Assembly (NCBI GenBank): GCA_049297675.1
Contig: JBAQUS010000011.1
Coordinates: forward strand, 101,184 to 165,183
Origin: Minisyncoccia bacterium
GTDB taxonomy: Bacteria > Patescibacteriota > Minisyncoccia > Phycocordibacterales > DATDWN01
Reading direction: 5' to 3'
Length of the DNA stretch: 64,000 nt
Shown: in pieces, positions 8,245 to 55,373 of the stretch
Numbering within the stretch: the first letter of the stretch is position 1
Layout: each line of letters begins with the position of its first letter
The notes under the pieces: model-generated
The model's database searches: none
Told to the model about the DNA's origin: nothing
Seen by the model: only the letters and a program-made list of their open reading frames with translations
Program-made: the position numbers and the translations under genes

Positions 8245-8793
8245 TTGAAGCACATGAAAACTGAATCTTTAGAAGCTTTTCCACCACCATATCTAAGAAG
8301 TCTGGATGAGATCTTGGGTTTTTCGGAAATACCGGAGGATAATTTTCAAGAATTGAAGTCCAGGTATATAGAATTGTATAAAAATAGTTTTGTTAAGTCA
8401 GTAAGAGACAATGAAGAAATAGATATGGAGTTATCGGAGGAAGTTTTGGATGAAGGGGGGACTGACGGGCTATTTAATGAACTTGAGGATTATTATAAAA
8501 AAGAAATTTGGGATAAATTAGTTGACGAACTAGTAAGAGTCGCTCCAGATTTTAAAGGTTTAAAGGTTCCCTCACCACTTAGACCTGAAGATTCAAAAAT
8601 TGAATTTGATGAGGATTTAGTTGACGCAGGCTTGGATGAAAAAAATAGAGATGTGCTGGACGAATATAGAAAATTACAAAAAAGTGCTCTTGAAATGTGT
8701 CTTAAGTTTTCAAAAAGAATTTCTAGGGAGGTGTTAAGAGAAAGTGTAAAAATGGCACGTATAGAGTTAGGATTAAGAAATATTGTTAACTAA
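8245..8793 (+). CDS. hypothetical acidic protein
   Basis: ORF track; no family recognised. Confidence 0.35.
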   Translation: MKHMKTESLEAFPPPYLRSLDEILGFSEIPEDNFQELKSRYIELYKNSFVKSVRDNEEIDMELSEEVLDEGGTDGLFNELEDYYKKEIWDKLVDELVRVAPDFKGLKVPSPLRPEDSKIEFDEDLVDAGLDEKNRDVLDEYRKLQKSALEMCLKFSKRISREVLRESVKMARIELGLRNIVN

Positions 8794-8913
8794 TATTAGA
8801 TTGTAATAGAAAGGAATTTTTTTCAACATAGGAATTTCATTTTATGTGCGAACCAGCGAGGGGAGTCTTCGGTTACTCGCTTACCAATTGTGTTCTCTAT
8901 TTTTCCTAATAAA

Positions 8914-8949
8914 ATAAAGTATCATATACGCCATGGCGTATATGATACT
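8914..8949. promoter_or_regulatory. 36-bp perfect palindrome centred on CCATGG, about 80 bp upstream of the Cas2/VapD-like gene
   Basis: aaagtatcatatacgccatggcgtatatgatacttt is identical to its reverse complement. Confidence 0.5.
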
Positions 8950-9027
8950 TTTATGGTATTCTCAGGGCAGGGGAATGTTGTTATAGATTTGTAATATACT
9001 GATGCATTAAATATATAGAAATCTCAA

Positions 9028-9417
9028 ATGAAAAGAAAATACTTAAGATACAAAGGAATACGAGTCAACGCTTTTGGTATTCCTGTGTCAGGATATGTTG
9101 ATAAAAGTAAAGGCAAAAAACCTATTAAAAAGAGGGATATTTATCACACCTCTTTTCCATCAGTTTTCAAAGAGAATTCTCCTAAAAATCTTATTGTTAT
9201 GTATGATATTCCACATGAATTAAAAAAGGAAAGAGACTGGTTTCGGCGACATCTTATTAAGTTTGGATACAAAATGATACAAAAAAGTGTTTGGGTGGGA
9301 CCATCCCCACTACCAAAAGAATTCCTCAAGTATTTAGAGGAAATAAAAATTGGAAATAGGTTAAAAACCCTTAAATTAGCCAAAACATACAATCCTACTA
9401 TATCAGCCATGGCGTAA
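9028..9417 (+). CDS. Cas2/VapD-fold endoribonuclease-like protein with a basic N-terminal extension of about 55 aa; solitary (no cas1, no CRISPR array)
   Basis: NLIVMYDIPHELKKERDWFRRHLIKFGYKMIQKSVWVG ... NRLKTLKL follows the Cas2 pattern (LVxYDV ... RRLRKxLxxYGxRVQxSVF ... RIYRL). Confidence 0.4.
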   Translation: MKRKYLRYKGIRVNAFGIPVSGYVDKSKGKKPIKKRDIYHTSFPSVFKENSPKNLIVMYDIPHELKKERDWFRRHLIKFGYKMIQKSVWVGPSPLPKEFLKYLEEIKIGNRLKTLKLAKTYNPTISAMA

Positions 9418-9481
9418 ATGATGATATCTAGGATTTCATGGTTATAAAATGGTCAATTAAATATTAGCTTTTTTTGGGTAA

Positions 9482-9534
9482 CTTGCATTTTTAGTGGGGG
9501 GGTAAAATAATGGTATTAAAATTAGCTTAAAATT
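9482..9534 (+). promoter_or_regulatory. conserved promoter/leader module, copy a (TTGCAt, 7 G's, TAAAAT ... ttaaaattATG)
   Basis: cttgcatttttagtgggggggtaaaataatggtattaaaattagcttaaaatt followed by ATG at 9535. Confidence 0.45.
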
Positions 9535-10203
9535 ATGAATGAAGGAAAACTTGAAAATAGTGATGACTTATCTATTGCCCCTCAAGAAGGATTAGATGGG
9601 CAAGTTGAAGATTATGATGCAGAAAAAAATTGGCAAGAATATATAAGAGATGGACGTCGAGAGCCGATGTCTATGGATCGTATATACTATATAATCCAAC
9701 GAGAAGATGGTCGGGCAGCCAGAATGGCGTTAAGTCACGCAGTTAATAGTGAGAGAGAATTTAAAAATGGAAAAGCGTGGTCTCCTCGTTCAGGAATAGA
9801 TTTTCCAATAGATGTGTCAGGACTTAATGAAGAGGAAAAGGATAAAATAGATCTTAAAGTGGGTAGTCTTGTCAAAGCATGGATTTTAGAACACGAACAA
9901 CAACAAGAATTAATGTTAGCAAGAGAAGAAGCTTTACGTGGTAATACCACAAAACTTATGAGTCTTCTCGTGGCATCTATGAGAAACGTAATAAACTCAG
10001 AGAGTCCGGAAACAGCCTTCAAATATATTTGTGGAATATGGTCCAGGAGTGATGGGGAAGATTATGAAGCAAATGCAACAGATTCTCCTCGTGAACTGAT
10101 GGATCATCCACTTCGTTATTTACCGAGCGATGTACAAAAAAAATTTGAGGATGAGTATAAGAGAGAATTTAGGAGCATGTTGGATGAGGAAAATGAAAGG
10201 TAA
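9535..10203 (+). CDS. hypothetical acidic protein
   Basis: ORF track; no family recognised. Confidence 0.35.
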   Translation: MNEGKLENSDDLSIAPQEGLDGQVEDYDAEKNWQEYIRDGRREPMSMDRIYYIIQREDGRAARMALSHAVNSEREFKNGKAWSPRSGIDFPIDVSGLNEEEKDKIDLKVGSLVKAWILEHEQQQELMLAREEALRGNTTKLMSLLVASMRNVINSESPETAFKYICGIWSRSDGEDYEANATDSPRELMDHPLRYLPSDVQKKFEDEYKREFRSMLDEENER

Positions 10204-10290
10204 AACTAATGGATAAGCAAGGTAAGCTATTGCTTTAATCAATCCTGAAAATGTTTAAGCTAGGGGAGTCCTCGCTTAAACTCGATTTAC

Positions 10291-10566
10291 TTAAAAAAGT
10301 TCGGAATGGTTGCCAATGTCGATTAATATCAAAACGAGCTCTCTTTTTCGGATTTGATAAACTAGAAGCAGGTCACCTTTAATGTGACACTCACGGAGGT
10401 TGTGCATACTTCCATGTAAAGAATGGTCTTTGTATTTTAGTGGGAGTGTTTTTCCTGAAGCTAGTATTTCGACAGCTGTTTCGATTTCGACCCTTTTGAT
10501 CTTCCCAGAGTGCATGACTTTCTTAAGGGATTTCTCAAATCTCTTAGTGAATATTTTTTTATACAT
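10291..10566 (-). CDS. yafQ: YafQ/RelE-family mRNA interferase toxin
   Basis: TLPLKYKDHSLHGSMHNLRECHIKGDLLLVYQIRKRELVLILIDIGNHSELF matches the YafQ pattern (LPxxYKDHxLxG ... REcHI ... DxLLIY ... GTHSxLF). Confidence 0.7.
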   Translation of the reverse strand: MYKKIFTKRFEKSLKKVMHSGKIKRVEIETAVEILASGKTLPLKYKDHSLHGSMHNLRECHIKGDLLLVYQIRKRELVLILIDIGNHSELF

Positions 10567-10583
10567 TTATTTTCCACTAAAAT

Positions 10584-10859
10584 TTAGACCAAAATATCAT
10601 CAAACATTTCTCGGGTAGAAGAATATCTTTTGCCGTGCTTTAAAGCCTCCACAGCCTCCCTTTCATATTTCTCAATTATTTTAGGATTGTATTTGTGAGT
10701 AAAACCAAATGGGCAAACATAAGTAAGATTATTAGGGTCGCTTTCTCTGGCCAAAAGAAACTTTATTCCGGAAGACAAATCAAGCCCCATATTCTTAAAC
10801 ATTTTTATAGCTTTTGTTTTTGTTGCCTTGTCTATTCTAATTTGTAGTGTTGTGTCCAT
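10584..10859 (-). CDS. dinJ: DinJ/RelB-family antitoxin, partner of the YafQ toxin
   Basis: MDTTLQIRIDKATKTKAIKMFKNMGLDLSSGIKFLLARES matches DinJ; the ORF-track start at 10943 is an upstream extension. Confidence 0.65.
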   Translation of the reverse strand: MDTTLQIRIDKATKTKAIKMFKNMGLDLSSGIKFLLARESDPNNLTYVCPFGFTHKYNPKIIEKYEREAVEALKHGKRYSSTREMFDDILV

Positions 10860-10936
10860 TTGGACAGTATAAAAAAATGTAATGATAATGTCAATACATA
10901 CTTTGTTGTAAGTGAAGGTGTACTTACCTACAATGA

Positions 10937-10998
10937 CTTGCAATTTTTACGGGGGGTAAAATTGAGGTATTAAAGTTAATACTTAAAAGTATAAAATT
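10937..10998 (+). promoter_or_regulatory. conserved promoter/leader module, copy b (TTGCAA, 6 G's, TAAAAT)
   Basis: cttgcaatttttacggggggtaaaattgaggtattaaagttaatacttaaaagtataaaatt followed by ATG. Confidence 0.45.
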
Positions 10999-11409: not shown

Positions 11410-11476
11410 ATACACTAAAAGAAATCCATATAGCTCAATAATTGACTATAAGTTTATCTTAAGATAAACTTATAGT

Positions 11477-11728
11477 ATGACTAAAATCAAGGATAAAATA
11501 ATAGGGCTTAAAGAGCTTAGGGAGAATACTGAAACTTATATTTCCCAAGTGGAAAAAGGTAAGTCTTTTGTGGTTATGCGAAAGTCAAAGCCAGTTTTTA
11601 CTATTTCTCCAGTAGACGAATGGGGAGATGAGGGTACCTGGGAAACAGTCGTAGACTTTAATGAGATAAAAAAAGGTGGTGTTCCAATTGAAGATGTGAT
11701 AAGTAGTTTGAAAAGATTAAATAGATAG
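11477..11728 (+). CDS. Phd/YefM-like antitoxin
   Basis: KIIGLKELRENTETYISQVEKGKSFVVMRKSKPVFTISPVDEW fits the Phd/YefM pattern; immediately precedes a RelE/ParE toxin gene. Confidence 0.5.
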   Translation: MTKIKDKIIGLKELRENTETYISQVEKGKSFVVMRKSKPVFTISPVDEWGDEGTWETVVDFNEIKKGGVPIEDVISSLKRLNR

Positions 11729-11735
11729 CTTATTT

Positions 11736-11969
11736 ATGAATAAAATAGATAAGTTTCTGAAAAAACTAATAACAGGCGACAGAGTTTTTATTTTAAAAGT
11801 TTTGAATCAAATATATTCTGGAAATTTCGAAAATTTACACGTAAAGAAGCTAAAAGGATTTAAAAATAAATACAGAGTTAGGGTGGGTAGAATAAGGATA
11901 ATATTTACTAAAGAAAGAGAAGGAATCAGAATTGATAAATTAGATTTTAGGAGCGATAATACATATTAA
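11736..11969 (+). CDS. RelE/ParE-family toxin
   Basis: KKLKGFKNKYRVRVGRIRIIFTKEREGIRIDKLDFRSDNTY fits the LxGxxxxYRxRVGxYRIIY ... I ... HR motif. Confidence 0.6.
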   Translation: MNKIDKFLKKLITGDRVFILKVLNQIYSGNFENLHVKKLKGFKNKYRVRVGRIRIIFTKEREGIRIDKLDFRSDNTY

Positions 11970-12174: not shown

Positions 12175-12435
12175 TTATCTGTATCCATCATGGTCATCAA
12201 TTGCCAGTAAGTACACTTCGTTTTTTAGTCCATATTGAAATATTATTCTGTCTTTACGATTAATCCAAAAGGCATATTTATCGCTCAGTCTACCGTGCAG
12301 TTTATGAACTTTCAGTCGCTTGTGGTTAAGAGGGTTTTCAAACAGTTTTATTTTTTCCAAAACCTCCTCATAGAATTTATTATCCAACTTTTTTAACTGT
12401 TTAATAAATGTGTGCGTATATATAAGACTAATCAT
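12175..12435 (-). CDS. RelE/ParE-superfamily toxin
   Basis: FIKQLKKLDNKFYEEVLEKIKLFENPLNHKRLKVHKLHGRLSDKYAFWINRKDRIIFQY ... VYLLAIDDH. Confidence 0.5.
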   Translation of the reverse strand: MISLIYTHTFIKQLKKLDNKFYEEVLEKIKLFENPLNHKRLKVHKLHGRLSDKYAFWINRKDRIIFQYGLKNEVYLLAIDDHDGYR

Positions 12436-12437
12436 AT

Positions 12438-12662
12438 TTAGTCTTTAAATTTTCTAACTATTTCTCTCAGGTCTCCACTAAAGACCCTGCCATTTTTTAT
12501 ATCCTTCTCTGCTTCAAAGATATTTTTTAGCAGTTCTTCTTCTGCATATAAATCTAATGCTTGTCTGACGGCATGGGCCTTATTAGCTGCCTTACCGCTT
12601 TTTACAAGGGAAGATATAAACCTTTCATTTTTTGGTGATATGGGTACTGATATTGTAGTCAT
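12438..12662 (-). CDS. ribbon-helix-helix (CopG/ParD-like) antitoxin, partner of the 12175..12435 toxin
   Basis: MTTISVPISPKNERFISSLVKSGKAANKAHAVRQALDLYAEEE; 3-nt gap to the toxin gene. Confidence 0.5.
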   Translation of the reverse strand: MTTISVPISPKNERFISSLVKSGKAANKAHAVRQALDLYAEEELLKNIFEAEKDIKNGRVFSGDLREIVRKFKD

Positions 12663-12810
12663 ATGATAATATATTAATTTATATGATATTATCATATATT
12701 AATAAGTAACTAAATGTCAAATTTACTTACTGATATTGCTCAAAATAGTCTTTTAGTATATAGTTTTCTCGTATCCCGAGAGGGTATTTTATTTACCACA
12801 ATAAATGAAT

Positions 12811-24346: not shown

Positions 24347-24382
24347 TTGACATTTCATATCCAAAGTATATACTTTGGATAT
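24347..24382. promoter_or_regulatory. 34-bp perfect palindrome overlapping the start of the RelB/DinJ-like antitoxin gene (putative autoregulatory operator)
   Basis: tttcatatccaaagtatatactttggatatgaaa. Confidence 0.5.
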
Positions 24383-24656
24383 GAAAACGATGATAAATAT
24401 AAAAACAGATGTTGAGATAAAAAATCAGGCCAAGAAGGTGGCTAAAGAGCTTGGTATTCCACTCGGGACTGTGCTTAACGCATATTTAAGGGAGTTTATT
24501 CAAACTAAGACGGCTCACTTTTCATTGGTACCAAGAATGACAAAAACCTTGGAGCTACTTTTAGGGTCTGTTGAAAAAGATGTGAGGAAGAGAAAAAATC
24601 TTTCCCAAACTTTTTCTTCTGATAAAGAAGCCATTAGTTATCTAAATAATCTCTAA
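24375..24656 (+). CDS. RelB/DinJ-family antitoxin
   Basis: MINIKTDVEIKNQAKKVAKELGIPLGTVLNAYLREFIQTK matches DinJ/RelB. Confidence 0.6.
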   Translation: MDMKTMINIKTDVEIKNQAKKVAKELGIPLGTVLNAYLREFIQTKTAHFSLVPRMTKTLELLLGSVEKDVRKRKNLSQTFSSDKEAISYLNNL

Positions 24657-26776: not shown

Positions 26777-27769
26777 TTGAATTTCGTGTTCGCTCACAAA
26801 TATACAGACATAATAACCATAGAAAATATTTTGGCAACATGGGGTCATTTTGTTTGTGGTAAGCGCAAGAAAAGAGACGTCAGAACTTTTCAATTACTGC
26901 TTGCTGATAATCTCATTACGCTATACAAAGAACTTACTGAAAAAACATATGAACATGGTAATTATTCAGCTTTTAATATATCAGATCCTAAACCGAGAAA
27001 TATACATAAAGCATTGGTAAGAGATAGAGTCATTCATCATCTAATATATAAGGAGTTGTATTGGTATTTCCATGAAAGACTGATATTTGATTCGTATTCG
27101 TGCAGAAAATATAAGGGGACTCACAAAGCTCTTGATAGGTTTGAACTTTTTGCTGGAAAAGTCTCAAAAAATCATACGAGAACGTGTTATGTATTAAAAT
27201 GCGATATTAAAAAATTCTTTGCTTCAATTGATCAGAAGTCTCTGATGCAGGTTCTTGATCGGCATATTGAAGACGAAGATATTAAATGGTTGATTAATCA
27301 AGTGTTAAAAAGTTTTCATACAACTGATGTGGGTGTAGGTTTGCCACTAGGTAATCTTAGCTCTCAATTACTGGTAAATATCTATATGCATGAGTTCGAT
27401 ATGTATGTGAAACAGGAACTGAGAGTTAAATATTATATCCGTTACGCTGACGATTTTGTTTTTCTATCAGATGATAAAAAATATCTTGAAGATCTTTTAC
27501 CAAAAATAAGGTTGTTTTTACAAGATAAGCTTCATTTATCTCTCCACCCTAACAAAGTGTTTATACAAACGTCCAGTTTAGGAGTGGATTTTCTAGGCTG
27601 GATTCACTTTCCGCACCATCGCATTATTAGAACTACAACAAAACGTAAGATTATTAAAAACACAAAATGGTATCCACGTCATGAAACAGTCAATTCATAT
27701 CGAGGTCTACTGGGACACGGAAATACCCATGAATTACAAGAGAAAATTGGAATTATTAAACATGCGTAA
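26777..27769 (+). CDS. DGR-type reverse transcriptase
   Basis: RT motifs including GLPLGNLSSQLLVNIYM (the SQ signature of DGR RTs, cf. IGNLTSQ) and RYADDFVFL (YxDD box). Confidence 0.8.
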   Translation: MNFVFAHKYTDIITIENILATWGHFVCGKRKKRDVRTFQLLLADNLITLYKELTEKTYEHGNYSAFNISDPKPRNIHKALVRDRVIHHLIYKELYWYFHERLIFDSYSCRKYKGTHKALDRFELFAGKVSKNHTRTCYVLKCDIKKFFASIDQKSLMQVLDRHIEDEDIKWLINQVLKSFHTTDVGVGLPLGNLSSQLLVNIYMHEFDMYVKQELRVKYYIRYADDFVFLSDDKKYLEDLLPKIRLFLQDKLHLSLHPNKVFIQTSSLGVDFLGWIHFPHHRIIRTTTKRKIIKNTKWYPRHETVNSYRGLLGHGNTHELQEKIGIIKHA

Positions 27770-50696: not shown

Positions 50697-51220
50697 TTTA
50701 TAACTCTATGTCAAGGGGTAGTTTGGGCGCCGAAAGGGTGGCTAAGATGTTGAGACTTTTATGAAGAAAGGGCAGTTGGTTAGGAATGATTTTAGTTTCG
50801 TTAATACAAGAATCACTTCATTGCTCAATAGTTTTTTATTAGACGAGGTGTCTTTTACTGAAAGCGTGTCCTGAGCCATGTTTTAAGTATTTTTCAAATT
50901 TTAGTGCCTTATTTTTATTTGGAAATGCGCAAAACCAGATTAATGAGAATGGAAGTTTAGTTTTTGAGTATCTAGACTCCCCGTTATTGTGTTCTTTTAG
51001 TCTATTCTTGATGTTTTCTGTGCTTCCGAAATATAGACTACCATCCTTCTGACTTTTTTAGAATGTAAACATAGTGCATATAAAGAATATATATCCTGCG
51101 TCGCTTGATTACAAGCTATGCAGGATCCACTGCTTCGCTAACAAAAAACCTCACAGGTTGTGTGAAGTTTCTTGTGCTAAAGGTATTTAGTGCCTGCACT
51201 GCGTAGCTTTAGCGAAGCAG

Positions 51221-51617
51221 TGGAGATGCCGATAGTTGAAATCGGGTCCATAAAGTGAATCGAGACAGATCTACAATACTTAGTTTACTTAAAGTTTTAA
51301 TCCGTGTTGCTTAGAGTAAACCAAACACAACACGGACGATCTTCTATTTTCTGGTTTCACTCGAAGAAAGTGAAACTATAACCTTAGTTTATATCAATCA
51401 TCTCCTCCTTAAAGGTTCAAGAGGAGAGACCGTCGTTTAGGTGTTGAGTTTAAGCAACTGCGTAAGCGAAAGCAAAATCGTTTGCTCCAAAATATGGAGA
51501 AGCGGATGCTTTTTTAGATAAGTTTTTTACACTTAATCTTTCCAGACTTTTTAAGAGTTTCTGGAGCTCTGTATTGCCTGAATCAATATCGTCTTTATGT
51601 CAAAACCTGTCATCCCC
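51221..51617 (-). ncRNA. ssrA: tmRNA (ssrA), about 397 nt, predicted tag peptide (A)ANDFAFAYAVA
   Basis: minus-strand 5' end GGGGATGACAGGTTTTGACA resembles GGGGCTGATTCTGGATTCGAC; the 3' end CCGAT-TTCAACT-ATCGG-CATCTCC-A forms a T-arm and a 7-bp acceptor stem with the 5' end, including a G3:U70 wobble pair; internal ORF GCA AAC GAT TTT GCT TTC GCT TAC GCA GTT GCT TAA at about 51450-51485; smpB lies immediately upstream. Confidence 0.6.
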
Positions 51618-55294: not shown

Positions 55295-55368
55295 GCGCGT
55301 ATAGCTCAGTTGGTTAGAGCATCGAGCTTATACCTCGAGGGTCCCACGTTCGAGTCGTGGTACGCGCA
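55295..55368 (+). tRNA. tRNA-Ile with anticodon UAU (reads AUA directly)
   Basis: gcgcgta / tagctcagttggttagagc / a / tcgag-cTTATAc-ctcga / gggtc / ccacg-ttcgagt-cgtgg / tacgcgc-a gives a clean cloverleaf with U33 and anticodon TAT; CCA not encoded. Confidence 0.8.
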
Positions 55369-55373
55369 CATCT

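Follow-up and report, generated by a model that had tools for sequence, protein, structure and literature searches.

A headless PaaX-type protein of Cas2 fold and its flanking palindromes in Paceibacteria: a possible autoregulated, formerly mobile cassette

The subject of this report is a small gene for a Cas2-like protein which, framed by two palindromic elements, lies in a 64,000-nucleotide stretch of DNA from a Minisyncoccia bacterium (GenBank assembly GCA_049297675.1, contig JBAQUS010000011.1, positions 101,184 to 165,183 of the forward strand); the whole stretch is called the window below, and coordinates are counted from its first letter. The open reading frame (ORF; 9028..9417, plus strand, ATG start, 129 aa) belongs to a large family of headless PaaX-type proteins, the genes of which mostly carry one palindrome in front, set in a fixed register with a putative promoter, and a second one at the 3' end. 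The interpretation tentatively preferred here, and held with some reserve, is that gene and sites make up an autoregulated, formerly mobile cassette in which the protein is bracketed by its cognate palindromes.

Residues 55-121 constitute a ferredoxin-fold domain of the Cas2/PaaX_M type. Against the Pfam model PaaX_M ('PaaX central Cas2-like domain') residues 55-117 reach 49.2 bits (cut-off 24), while the Cas2 models are also exceeded, with 30.2 bits for Pfam CRISPR_Cas2 (PF09827; cut-off 23.8) and 30.9 bits for NCBIfam TIGR01573 cas2 (cut-off 24.5). The Asp residue D60 (YDIP), at the end of strand 1, is invariant in the family and aligned with the catalytic Asp of Cas2, and the motif hhhhYDIP...R..hR+.L...Gh.hhQ.SVW as a whole can be aligned with type II-A Cas2. 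The Cas2 core of the original prediction is thus borne out by models above their cut-offs and by the conserved D60. PADLOC returns Cas2 models only (down to 8e-9), on which ground a known defence system was rejected.

The N-terminal part of the protein, residues 1-54, consists of a YKGxRVNAFGxPV motif followed by a basic linker. In an alignment with relatives of 160 aa (alignment A3), the 130-aa family is devoid of helix 1 and of a block of ~27 aa corresponding to the recognition helix and wing, and on this comparison residues 1-54 represent the remnant of a winged-helix head from which these elements have been lost. The basic N-terminal extension described originally does exist, but it is in fact this remnant of a beheaded winged helix; no winged-helix domain is matched in Pfam by the 129-aa protein. 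The vestige is well conserved throughout the family, with the layout YKGxRVNAFGLPV, variable basic linker, YHxSFxSxF, in which V13 and G17 are invariant and K9, G10, N14, F16 and P19 are kept in at least 90% of the members. At the other end the protein terminates 8 residues beyond the Cas2-like domain. Thus, although the family shares the central PaaX_M domain with PaaX, it differs from it by the absence of helix 1, of the recognition helix and wing and of the C-terminal ligand-binding domain, and no paa genes are found nearby; the PaaX model TIGR02277 gives 17.4 bits, far below its cut-off of 264.55. The protein of the window is itself intact and keeps all invariant residues of the family.

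A protein database contains more than 1,572 relatives, and the best 120 of these are 119-169 aa long, 56-100% identical and all from Patescibacteria; relatives are annotated as 'Cas2' at NCBI and as 'PaaX' at JGI. When 1.84 billion cluster representatives were searched with a profile, 1,701 clusters were obtained, the next-nearest of which are proteins of 160-200 aa with an N-terminal domain of ~70 aa ahead of the same Cas2-like domain. This additional domain has consistent but sub-threshold matches to winged-helix models (PaaX N-domain, HTH_45, MarR_2, WH_AprA), and its bearers are referred to as headed members. The ~130-aa proteins, more than 1,500 in number and 56-75% identical, are one large family restricted to Paceibacteria (Patescibacteria), a branch of the PaaX central domain reduced to the Cas2-fold dimerisation domain and a winged-helix vestige. 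The earlier suggestion of a Cas2 domesticated for another role was right about a Cas2-type fold outside CRISPR, but too vague, given the PaaX-central-domain ancestry. A scan with one genome per species found 322 loci, several metagenome-assembled genomes having two or three copies, and the family is under strong purifying selection. No relative was found among the IMG/VR viral contigs, and a phage or viral origin was rejected on this result and on the lack of a PHROG match. Full-text searching of the literature found no description of the family or of its palindrome.

Upstream of the gene in the window, as first reported, stands a perfect 36-bp palindrome without strand, AAAGTATCATATACGCCATGGCGTATATGATACTTT (8916..8951), the two 18-nt arms of which (8916-8933 and 8934-8951) are 100% complementary and meet with zero spacer; its middle part is the family core ATATACGC-CATG-GCGTATAT. 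It is the longest perfect palindrome within the 64 kb and, as single-stranded DNA, has a folding energy of -14.7 kcal/mol (z = -7.7 against shuffles); Rfam gives no match at the locus. The downstream site (9400..9422, equally without strand) is an imperfect copy, ATATCAGCCATGGCGTAAATGAT, with a left arm of the 'TCAGC' type, identical to positions 8924-8946 of the upstream element at 20/23 positions and overlapping the codons I-S-A-M-A and the stop codon of the ORF. The motif GCCATGGCGTA(T/A)ATGAT is found in both, at 8930-8946 and at 9406-9422, where it encodes the terminal ..SAMA and the stop codon. When the 16-mer core was searched with up to 3 mismatches, 3 matches were obtained in the window compared with 0.09 expected from shuffles, the third one (13195) being weak and without palindromic arms, and no further copies of the palindrome were found in the remaining 63 kb. 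The gene had been described as bracketed by a direct repeat: the second copy is there, but its directness is not essential, as the two copies of homologous loci are direct in 10 cases and inverted in 8, while in another 24 the orientations cannot be told apart. What lies downstream is a degenerate second copy of the same two-fold symmetric site. The range first given for the feature, 8914-9436, takes in the ORF together with the two elements.

The geometry of the cassette was counted over family genes from the one-genome-per-species loci and from metagenome contigs (n=117). A palindrome lies upstream in 106/117, downstream in 82/117 and on both sides in 79/117, and the earlier view that palindrome and 3' motif belong to the gene is well supported by these numbers. 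In 97 of the 106 genes the centre of the upstream site precedes the ATG by 35-38 nt; counted from the end of the left arm, a TATAAT-like hexamer begins at offset index 22-24 in 69/90, and the gap from this -10 box to the ATG is 5-9 nt in 74/90, typically ~7 nt. Such a short distance implies a leaderless mRNA; a Shine-Dalgarno-like motif was seen in 1/121 family genes, and an extended -10 (TGn) is unsupported (10/98). Judged from this arrangement, family transcripts would be leaderless and the palindrome would, with its right half, lie over the -35 position.

Counted from the stop codon, the downstream copy is found at positions between -19 and +44. The window belongs to a subfamily in which the ORF reads into the copy and acquires an ..ISAMA* tail, and in the 41 genes of this kind the Ser codon is TCA (41/41) and the last Ala codon GCG (41/41), so that even synonymous positions are frozen, while GCC-ATG varies solely as the coupled pair GCT-ATA, which keeps the symmetry. 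Since the codons are fixed and the changes are coupled and symmetry-preserving, the C-terminal tail appears to be dictated by the DNA palindrome and not by the protein.

The window copy departs from the general geometry in one respect, as the centre of its upstream palindrome is 95 nt before the ATG, a distance unmatched by any other of the 106 genes that have a site upstream. A -10-like hexamer read from the sequence, TATTCT (8957..8962, plus strand), starts 24 nt past the end of the left arm (8933), at the commonest offset in the family, and is probably a relic of the ancestral promoter. It is followed by a spacer (8963..9027, plus strand) ~59 nt longer than in all other family members; a similarity search with the extra 59 nt found no match anywhere. 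The spacer is free of Shine-Dalgarno motifs and contains a candidate promoter (TTGTAA 8989-8994, 17-nt spacer, TATATA 9012-9017), which is weak and was not called by the consensus scan.

The nature of the site itself was deduced from an ungapped alignment of 84 sites. The core AT-n-TACGC-nATn-GCGTA-n-AT is invariant or near-invariant, central AT included, and this conservation implies a sequence-specific reader. The arms covary around and within the core: 81.8% of the cells are paired compared with 67.5 +/- 0.8 in shuffles, and 249 cells have changed on both sides compared with 118 +/- 9, neither value being reached in any of 500 shuffles and both collapsing when the register is slid. The outer arms vary between loci yet remain complementary, up to 21-22 nt per arm. 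Moreover, within a locus the two sites have rare variants and outer arms in common (11.9/18 positions compared with 9.0 +/- 0.33 after permutation), so that they evolve in concert.

Site and gene are also closely linked in the genome. Over 600 kb of flanks picked by means of the gene, 79/80 strong sites adjoin a family gene, compared with 1 strong site per 792 kb in shuffled DNA, and ~84/96 adjacent site pairs enclose one. On the latter count, and as the site is unlike attC or dif, an integron-like or dif-like cassette array was rejected. Other subfamilies have palindromes at the same positions with a different core, which is GACGGCCGTC in three loci (L059, L178, L109), TTGCTATAGCAA in L094 and TTTCGYGACCRCGAAA in four (L009, L110, L124, L152). 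Furthermore, a headed, winged-helix-bearing relative (L117) has 42-bp palindromes on both sides with identical outer arms and the family's own core, ACGCCATGGCGT. Subfamily-specific palindromes of this kind are what would be expected of co-evolving protein-site pairs.

The contigs L059 and L178 each carry one headed and one headless member. The palindrome found 3' of the 160-aa headed relative of L059 (1365-1394), TTTCAGACGGCCGTCTGAAA, contains GCCGTCTGAA, the 10-mer of the Neisseria DNA-uptake sequence; the equivalent copy of L178, TTTTTGACGGCCGTCAAAAA, also 3' of a 160-aa headed relative, has only the GACGGCCGTC core in common with it, and the occurrence of the 10-mer is probably a coincidence.

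Family genes always point the same way as their neighbours, and the housekeeping genes between which they are placed make up a small number of recurring contexts: between rpsL-rpsG and fusA (19 loci, the window among them), between FtsW/RodA-FolD and PAP2-SecDF (12 loci), between RNase III-SMC and RNase R (10 loci), and in several others. In the window the cassette is part of a 4.9-kb island of accessory genes reaching from rpsG to fusA. A neighbour-joining tree contains context-specific clades, which indicate vertical inheritance, and the subfamily of the window is spread over at least five different syntenic contexts, from which it follows that the cassette has moved. In a small sample, the outer arms track the protein clade and not the genomic context; the sites therefore seem to travel with the gene, and target-site duplication of a pre-existing hairpin was rejected on this evidence. 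An SMC/RNase R context without the gene (L130) has no palindrome and is too divergent to fix the boundaries of the cassette, and a search for strain-level presence/absence polymorphism by means of the window's RpsG retrieved the same genome only. No immediate neighbour gene is conserved in 81 loci.

At some loci there is a third copy of the palindrome, so that one accessory neighbour is enclosed as well, in the order site-gene-site-gene-site (L003:3361-3965, L005:1839-3151, L002:514-1191 and L029:2732-3309). The neighbours in these four cases are an S51 peptidase, an AAA kinase and ORFs of 207 and 402 aa, both without function by annotation, and the cargo bounded in this way comprises overall S51 peptidase, kinase, HAD and EamA genes.

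On the preferred interpretation of an autoregulated cassette, the order palindrome, -10 box, leaderless ORF, palindrome would reflect a simple control circuit. The palindromes would be the two-fold symmetric recognition sites of the protein superfamily, with a sequence of their own in each subfamily. A dimer of the family protein would bind the upstream site, which in nearly all members would cover the -35 of its own promoter, and transcription would thereby be switched off. The 3' site might pair with the upstream one as a loop, or act as a roadblock or hairpin terminator that closes the unit, and such a closure would insulate the cassette from the host housekeeping operon, here rpsL-rpsG and fusA. 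The whole unit would have moved in the past between intergenic positions.

Several observations weigh against this interpretation. The 130-aa family has lost the very recognition helix and wing that would read DNA, and perfect outer arms of up to 21-22 nt exceed the contact of a small dimer and point to a hairpin or cruciform, or to a mechanism which generates palindromes. The correlation between subfamilies and palindromes could come partly from the common descent of a gene and its flanks. In the window, with the site 95 nt and not 36 nt from the ATG, autorepression by promoter occlusion is not to be assumed, and this copy may have escaped control or changed it, its upstream site now lying 59 nt farther from the start codon. 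Finally, solo copies of the palindrome at the 3' ends of other genes, and in-frame copies within genes, go beyond a pure regulator model.

These solo copies became apparent when metagenomes were scanned for the exact 20-mer, with matches in at least 120 stretches; further copies of the palindrome, for which the original prediction had proposed a search, thus exist both in family loci and on their own. Among the matches listed, ~50 sites adjoin a family gene and ~70 (69-80) are solo, for the most part where genes have their 3' ends (convergent in 20 cases, tandem in 22, divergent in 5) and at times clustered, two to four together. No protein remnants were found within 700 nt of 80 solo sites, and the possibility that solo palindromes are decayed gene copies was rejected accordingly. 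Also among the matches listed, ~20 of the solo copies are contained in ORFs; at least 12 of them belong, in frame, to housekeeping genes that can be recognised, namely ComF-like (L109:7099, L157:3212 and 3239, L081:3114, L132:4654), TatD (L101:1150, L114:1765, L155:262), RNase HI (L083:4424), UvrC-like (L141:243) and PrmC-like (L189:10108) genes. Their translation is ..LRHGVN.. or ..FTPWRK.., at a constant position in orthologues of different organisms. Compared with solved structures, RNase HI has a net insertion of 4 residues at the palindrome region and TatD one of 8 residues after the H-x-R motif, also at the palindrome region; the insert adds a net 12-24 nt to the coding sequence around the 20-nt core. 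The solo and in-frame palindrome looks like a short element, either mobile or actively maintained. Rickettsia palindromic elements, of ~100-150 bp, are likewise inserted in frame, and tolerated, in genes of conserved proteins, though the net insert is much shorter in the present case (12-24 nt), and they are not known to have an associated protein gene.

On account of this behaviour, a role similar to that of the REP-associated tyrosine transposases (RAYTs) of repetitive extragenic palindromic (REP) sequences stays alive as a rival, albeit a rather unlikely one: the Cas2-fold protein would be a nuclease which recognises the palindrome as a hairpin or cruciform, cuts it by means of its Asp and copies or maintains it throughout the genome, its own gene being flanked by the repeat. 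As in the REP/RAYT systems (REPIN/RAYT biology: PMC3337134, PMC3116915), a small gene is flanked by a short palindrome (on both sides in 79/117 genes) which also occurs elsewhere, mostly at gene 3' ends and at times clustered, and the several paralogues of a genome have repeat variants of their own, one for each clade. The solo copies (69-80 among the matches listed), the in-frame insertions at a constant position in orthologues, the lack of gene remnants beside solo copies and the alignment of the invariant D60 with the catalytic Asp of Cas2 are all consistent with it. However, RAYTs are transposases of the HUH-Y1 type, and the 129-aa protein has the Cas2 fold instead, with no Pfam match to HUH-Y1 (IS200-like) transposases, no HUH motif and no tyrosine motif. 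The repeat also seems far less abundant: unbiased sampling finds solo copies to be rare (1 per 600 kb in the gene-picked flanks and 0 in the other 63 kb of the window), whereas REPs number tens to hundreds per genome. The gene, in turn, is present here in several copies per genome, and its upstream repeat stands in a fixed promoter register, which is better explained by regulation. In addition, the nuclease activity of Cas2 is described in PMC11980593 as weak and dispensable in spacer acquisition. In a wider form, which we regard as a still more doubtful proposition, the Cas2-fold family would be a dedicated partner that binds, cuts or copies and maintains mobile short palindromic repeats, a RAYT-like system on a Cas2/PaaX scaffold, the repeat bracketing the gene, spreading to gene 3' ends and inserting in frame into housekeeping genes.

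The loss of the reading head can also be taken at face value. The 130-aa protein would then not bind DNA at all but heterodimerise with winged-helix paralogues, the true readers, as an anti-repressor or dominant-negative partner under their control. That the recognition helix and wing are deleted while the dimerisation domain is fully conserved, that the winged-helix relative of L117 has the same palindrome core, and that headed and headless members co-occur on L059 and on L178 would fit such a partnership; the headed members of these two contigs, however, use a different palindrome (GACGGCCGTC), no headed paralogue exists within the 64-kb window, and the strong constraint on the vestigial N-terminal motif suggests a function of its own, so that this explanation seems quite unlikely. 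An improbable one is that of a selfish nuclease toxin of VapD/Cas2 type, with an antitoxin that is unidentified or an RNA, in which the palindromes would do no more than terminate or insulate an inserted gene. A distant homology between VapD and Cas2 is recognised (PMC11980593), and the family shares with the VapD toxins (VapXD, VapWD, VapYD) the superfold, the conserved N-terminal Asp and the occurrence as stand-alone genes outside CRISPR loci. The palindrome of the window, moreover, scored terminator-like on the minus strand, and the island from rpsG to fusA holds three toxin-antitoxin pairs. Yet no VapD model matches the 129-aa protein, the family has an N-terminal extension, palindromes on both sides and no adjacent antitoxin, and no partner gene is conserved in the 81 loci, so that the VapD-like toxin of the original prediction, and a VapD-type toxin-antitoxin system with it, had to be abandoned. 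Terminators, besides, need neither an invariant core nor a fixed register with the next promoter, and the U-tract is missing from most copies.

There is, lastly, next to no likelihood that the gene is a decayed remnant of a CRISPR-Cas adaptation module, an origin suggested by the Cas2 models exceeding their cut-offs and by the name given at NCBI. The window contains no cas1, no other cas family among the genes called across its 64 kb and no closely spaced direct repeats, in agreement with the initial description of the locus; no array was found in 206 related loci (1.5 Mb), nor are cas genes recurrent neighbours among the annotated clusters of 81 loci, and a CRISPR remnant was rejected for these reasons. 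True Cas2 proteins also differ from the family in that the latter has no Cas1, array or cas genes, scores higher with PaaX_M, carries the 54-aa winged-helix remnant and occurs in several copies per genome, under strong purifying selection and with a promoter of its own and flanking palindromes. CRISPR-Cas is, furthermore, reported to be rare in candidate phyla radiation (CPR) bacteria (PMC6509639). The gene had been called solitary, which is correct as to the missing CRISPR context but not otherwise, as it is part of a conserved gene-plus-palindromes module found in hundreds of Paceibacteria loci.

Other features of the window deserve description. The cassette is flanked by two acidic ORFs (8245-8793, 182 aa, and 9535-10203, 222 aa), which have a weak internal repeat in common and match no family in Pfam, NCBIfam, PADLOC or PHROGs. 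Between the first of them and the palindrome there is a hairpin (GCGAGGGGAGTCTTCGGTTACTCGC, ~8857-8881), rich in G+C and with a loop of the UUCG type, and a 21-mer related to it is found at 10258-10278. The second ORF is preceded by a promoter-like block (9483-9534) made up of a -35-like TTGCAT, a G run (9496-9502) and a -10-like TAAAAT. The same kind of block is present 3' of the family gene in L001, L011, L043, L045, L060, L066, L069 and L080; in the loci checked its hexamers are a -35-like TTGCAA or TTGACA and a -10-like TAAAAT or TATTAT, the G run counts 7-10 G over the whole set, and the ORFs which follow are small, acidic and non-conserved. As the length of the G run varies between loci, the promoter spacer would change, and these promoters may be phase-variable.

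The three toxin-antitoxin-like pairs between rpsG and fusA (10291-10943, minus strand; 11477-11969, plus strand; 12175-12695, minus strand) comprise a YafQ/ParE with a RelB-like partner, a Phd/YefM-like protein with its partner and one further pair, and HicA-like and YafQ-like genes are additionally present within ribosomal-protein operons of the window. A perfect 32-bp palindrome, ACTATAAGTTTATCTTAAGATAAACTTATAGT (11445-11476), stops one base short of the start codon of the Phd/YefM-like antitoxin gene and is probably its operator, and another perfect palindrome of 34 bp, TTTCATATCCAAAGTATATACTTTGGATATGAAA (24353-24386), is unrelated in sequence to the family site. Within the S10 ribosomal-protein operon, between rplB and rpsS (~26.3-27.8 kb), there is a bAvd-like gene together with a reverse transcriptase (ORF 26777-27769), a pair resembling a diversity-generating retroelement. 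A tRNA-Ile gene with the anticodon TAT and a tmRNA gene (tag peptide VKNLSKKASASPYFGANDFAFAYAVA) were located at 55295-55369 and 51220-51617, respectively.

As regards the significance of the family, thousands of genes of Patescibacteria are labelled 'Cas2' or 'PaaX', names which suggest CRISPR immunity or aromatic catabolism, neither of which applies here; the 'Cas2' label, in particular, inflates the counts of CRISPR components in CPR bacteria and should be corrected. These genes form instead a distinct module, in which a headless PaaX-type protein of Cas2 fold is combined with a palindrome, its probable cognate site, at a putatively leaderless promoter and at the 3' end, and which is inserted between essential operons such as those of rpsG and fusA. 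The module offers a concrete, predicted pairing of protein and DNA site in organisms in which almost no regulation has been worked out. The solo and in-frame palindromes of TatD, ComF-like, RNase HI and UvrC-like genes, in addition, point to a possible new kind of repeat-plus-protein system. If the RAYT-like view on a Cas2/PaaX scaffold were true, the family would be a present-day case in which a Cas2-like protein is tied to palindromic repeats without CRISPR, and would bear on how Cas2 and repeats first became associated.

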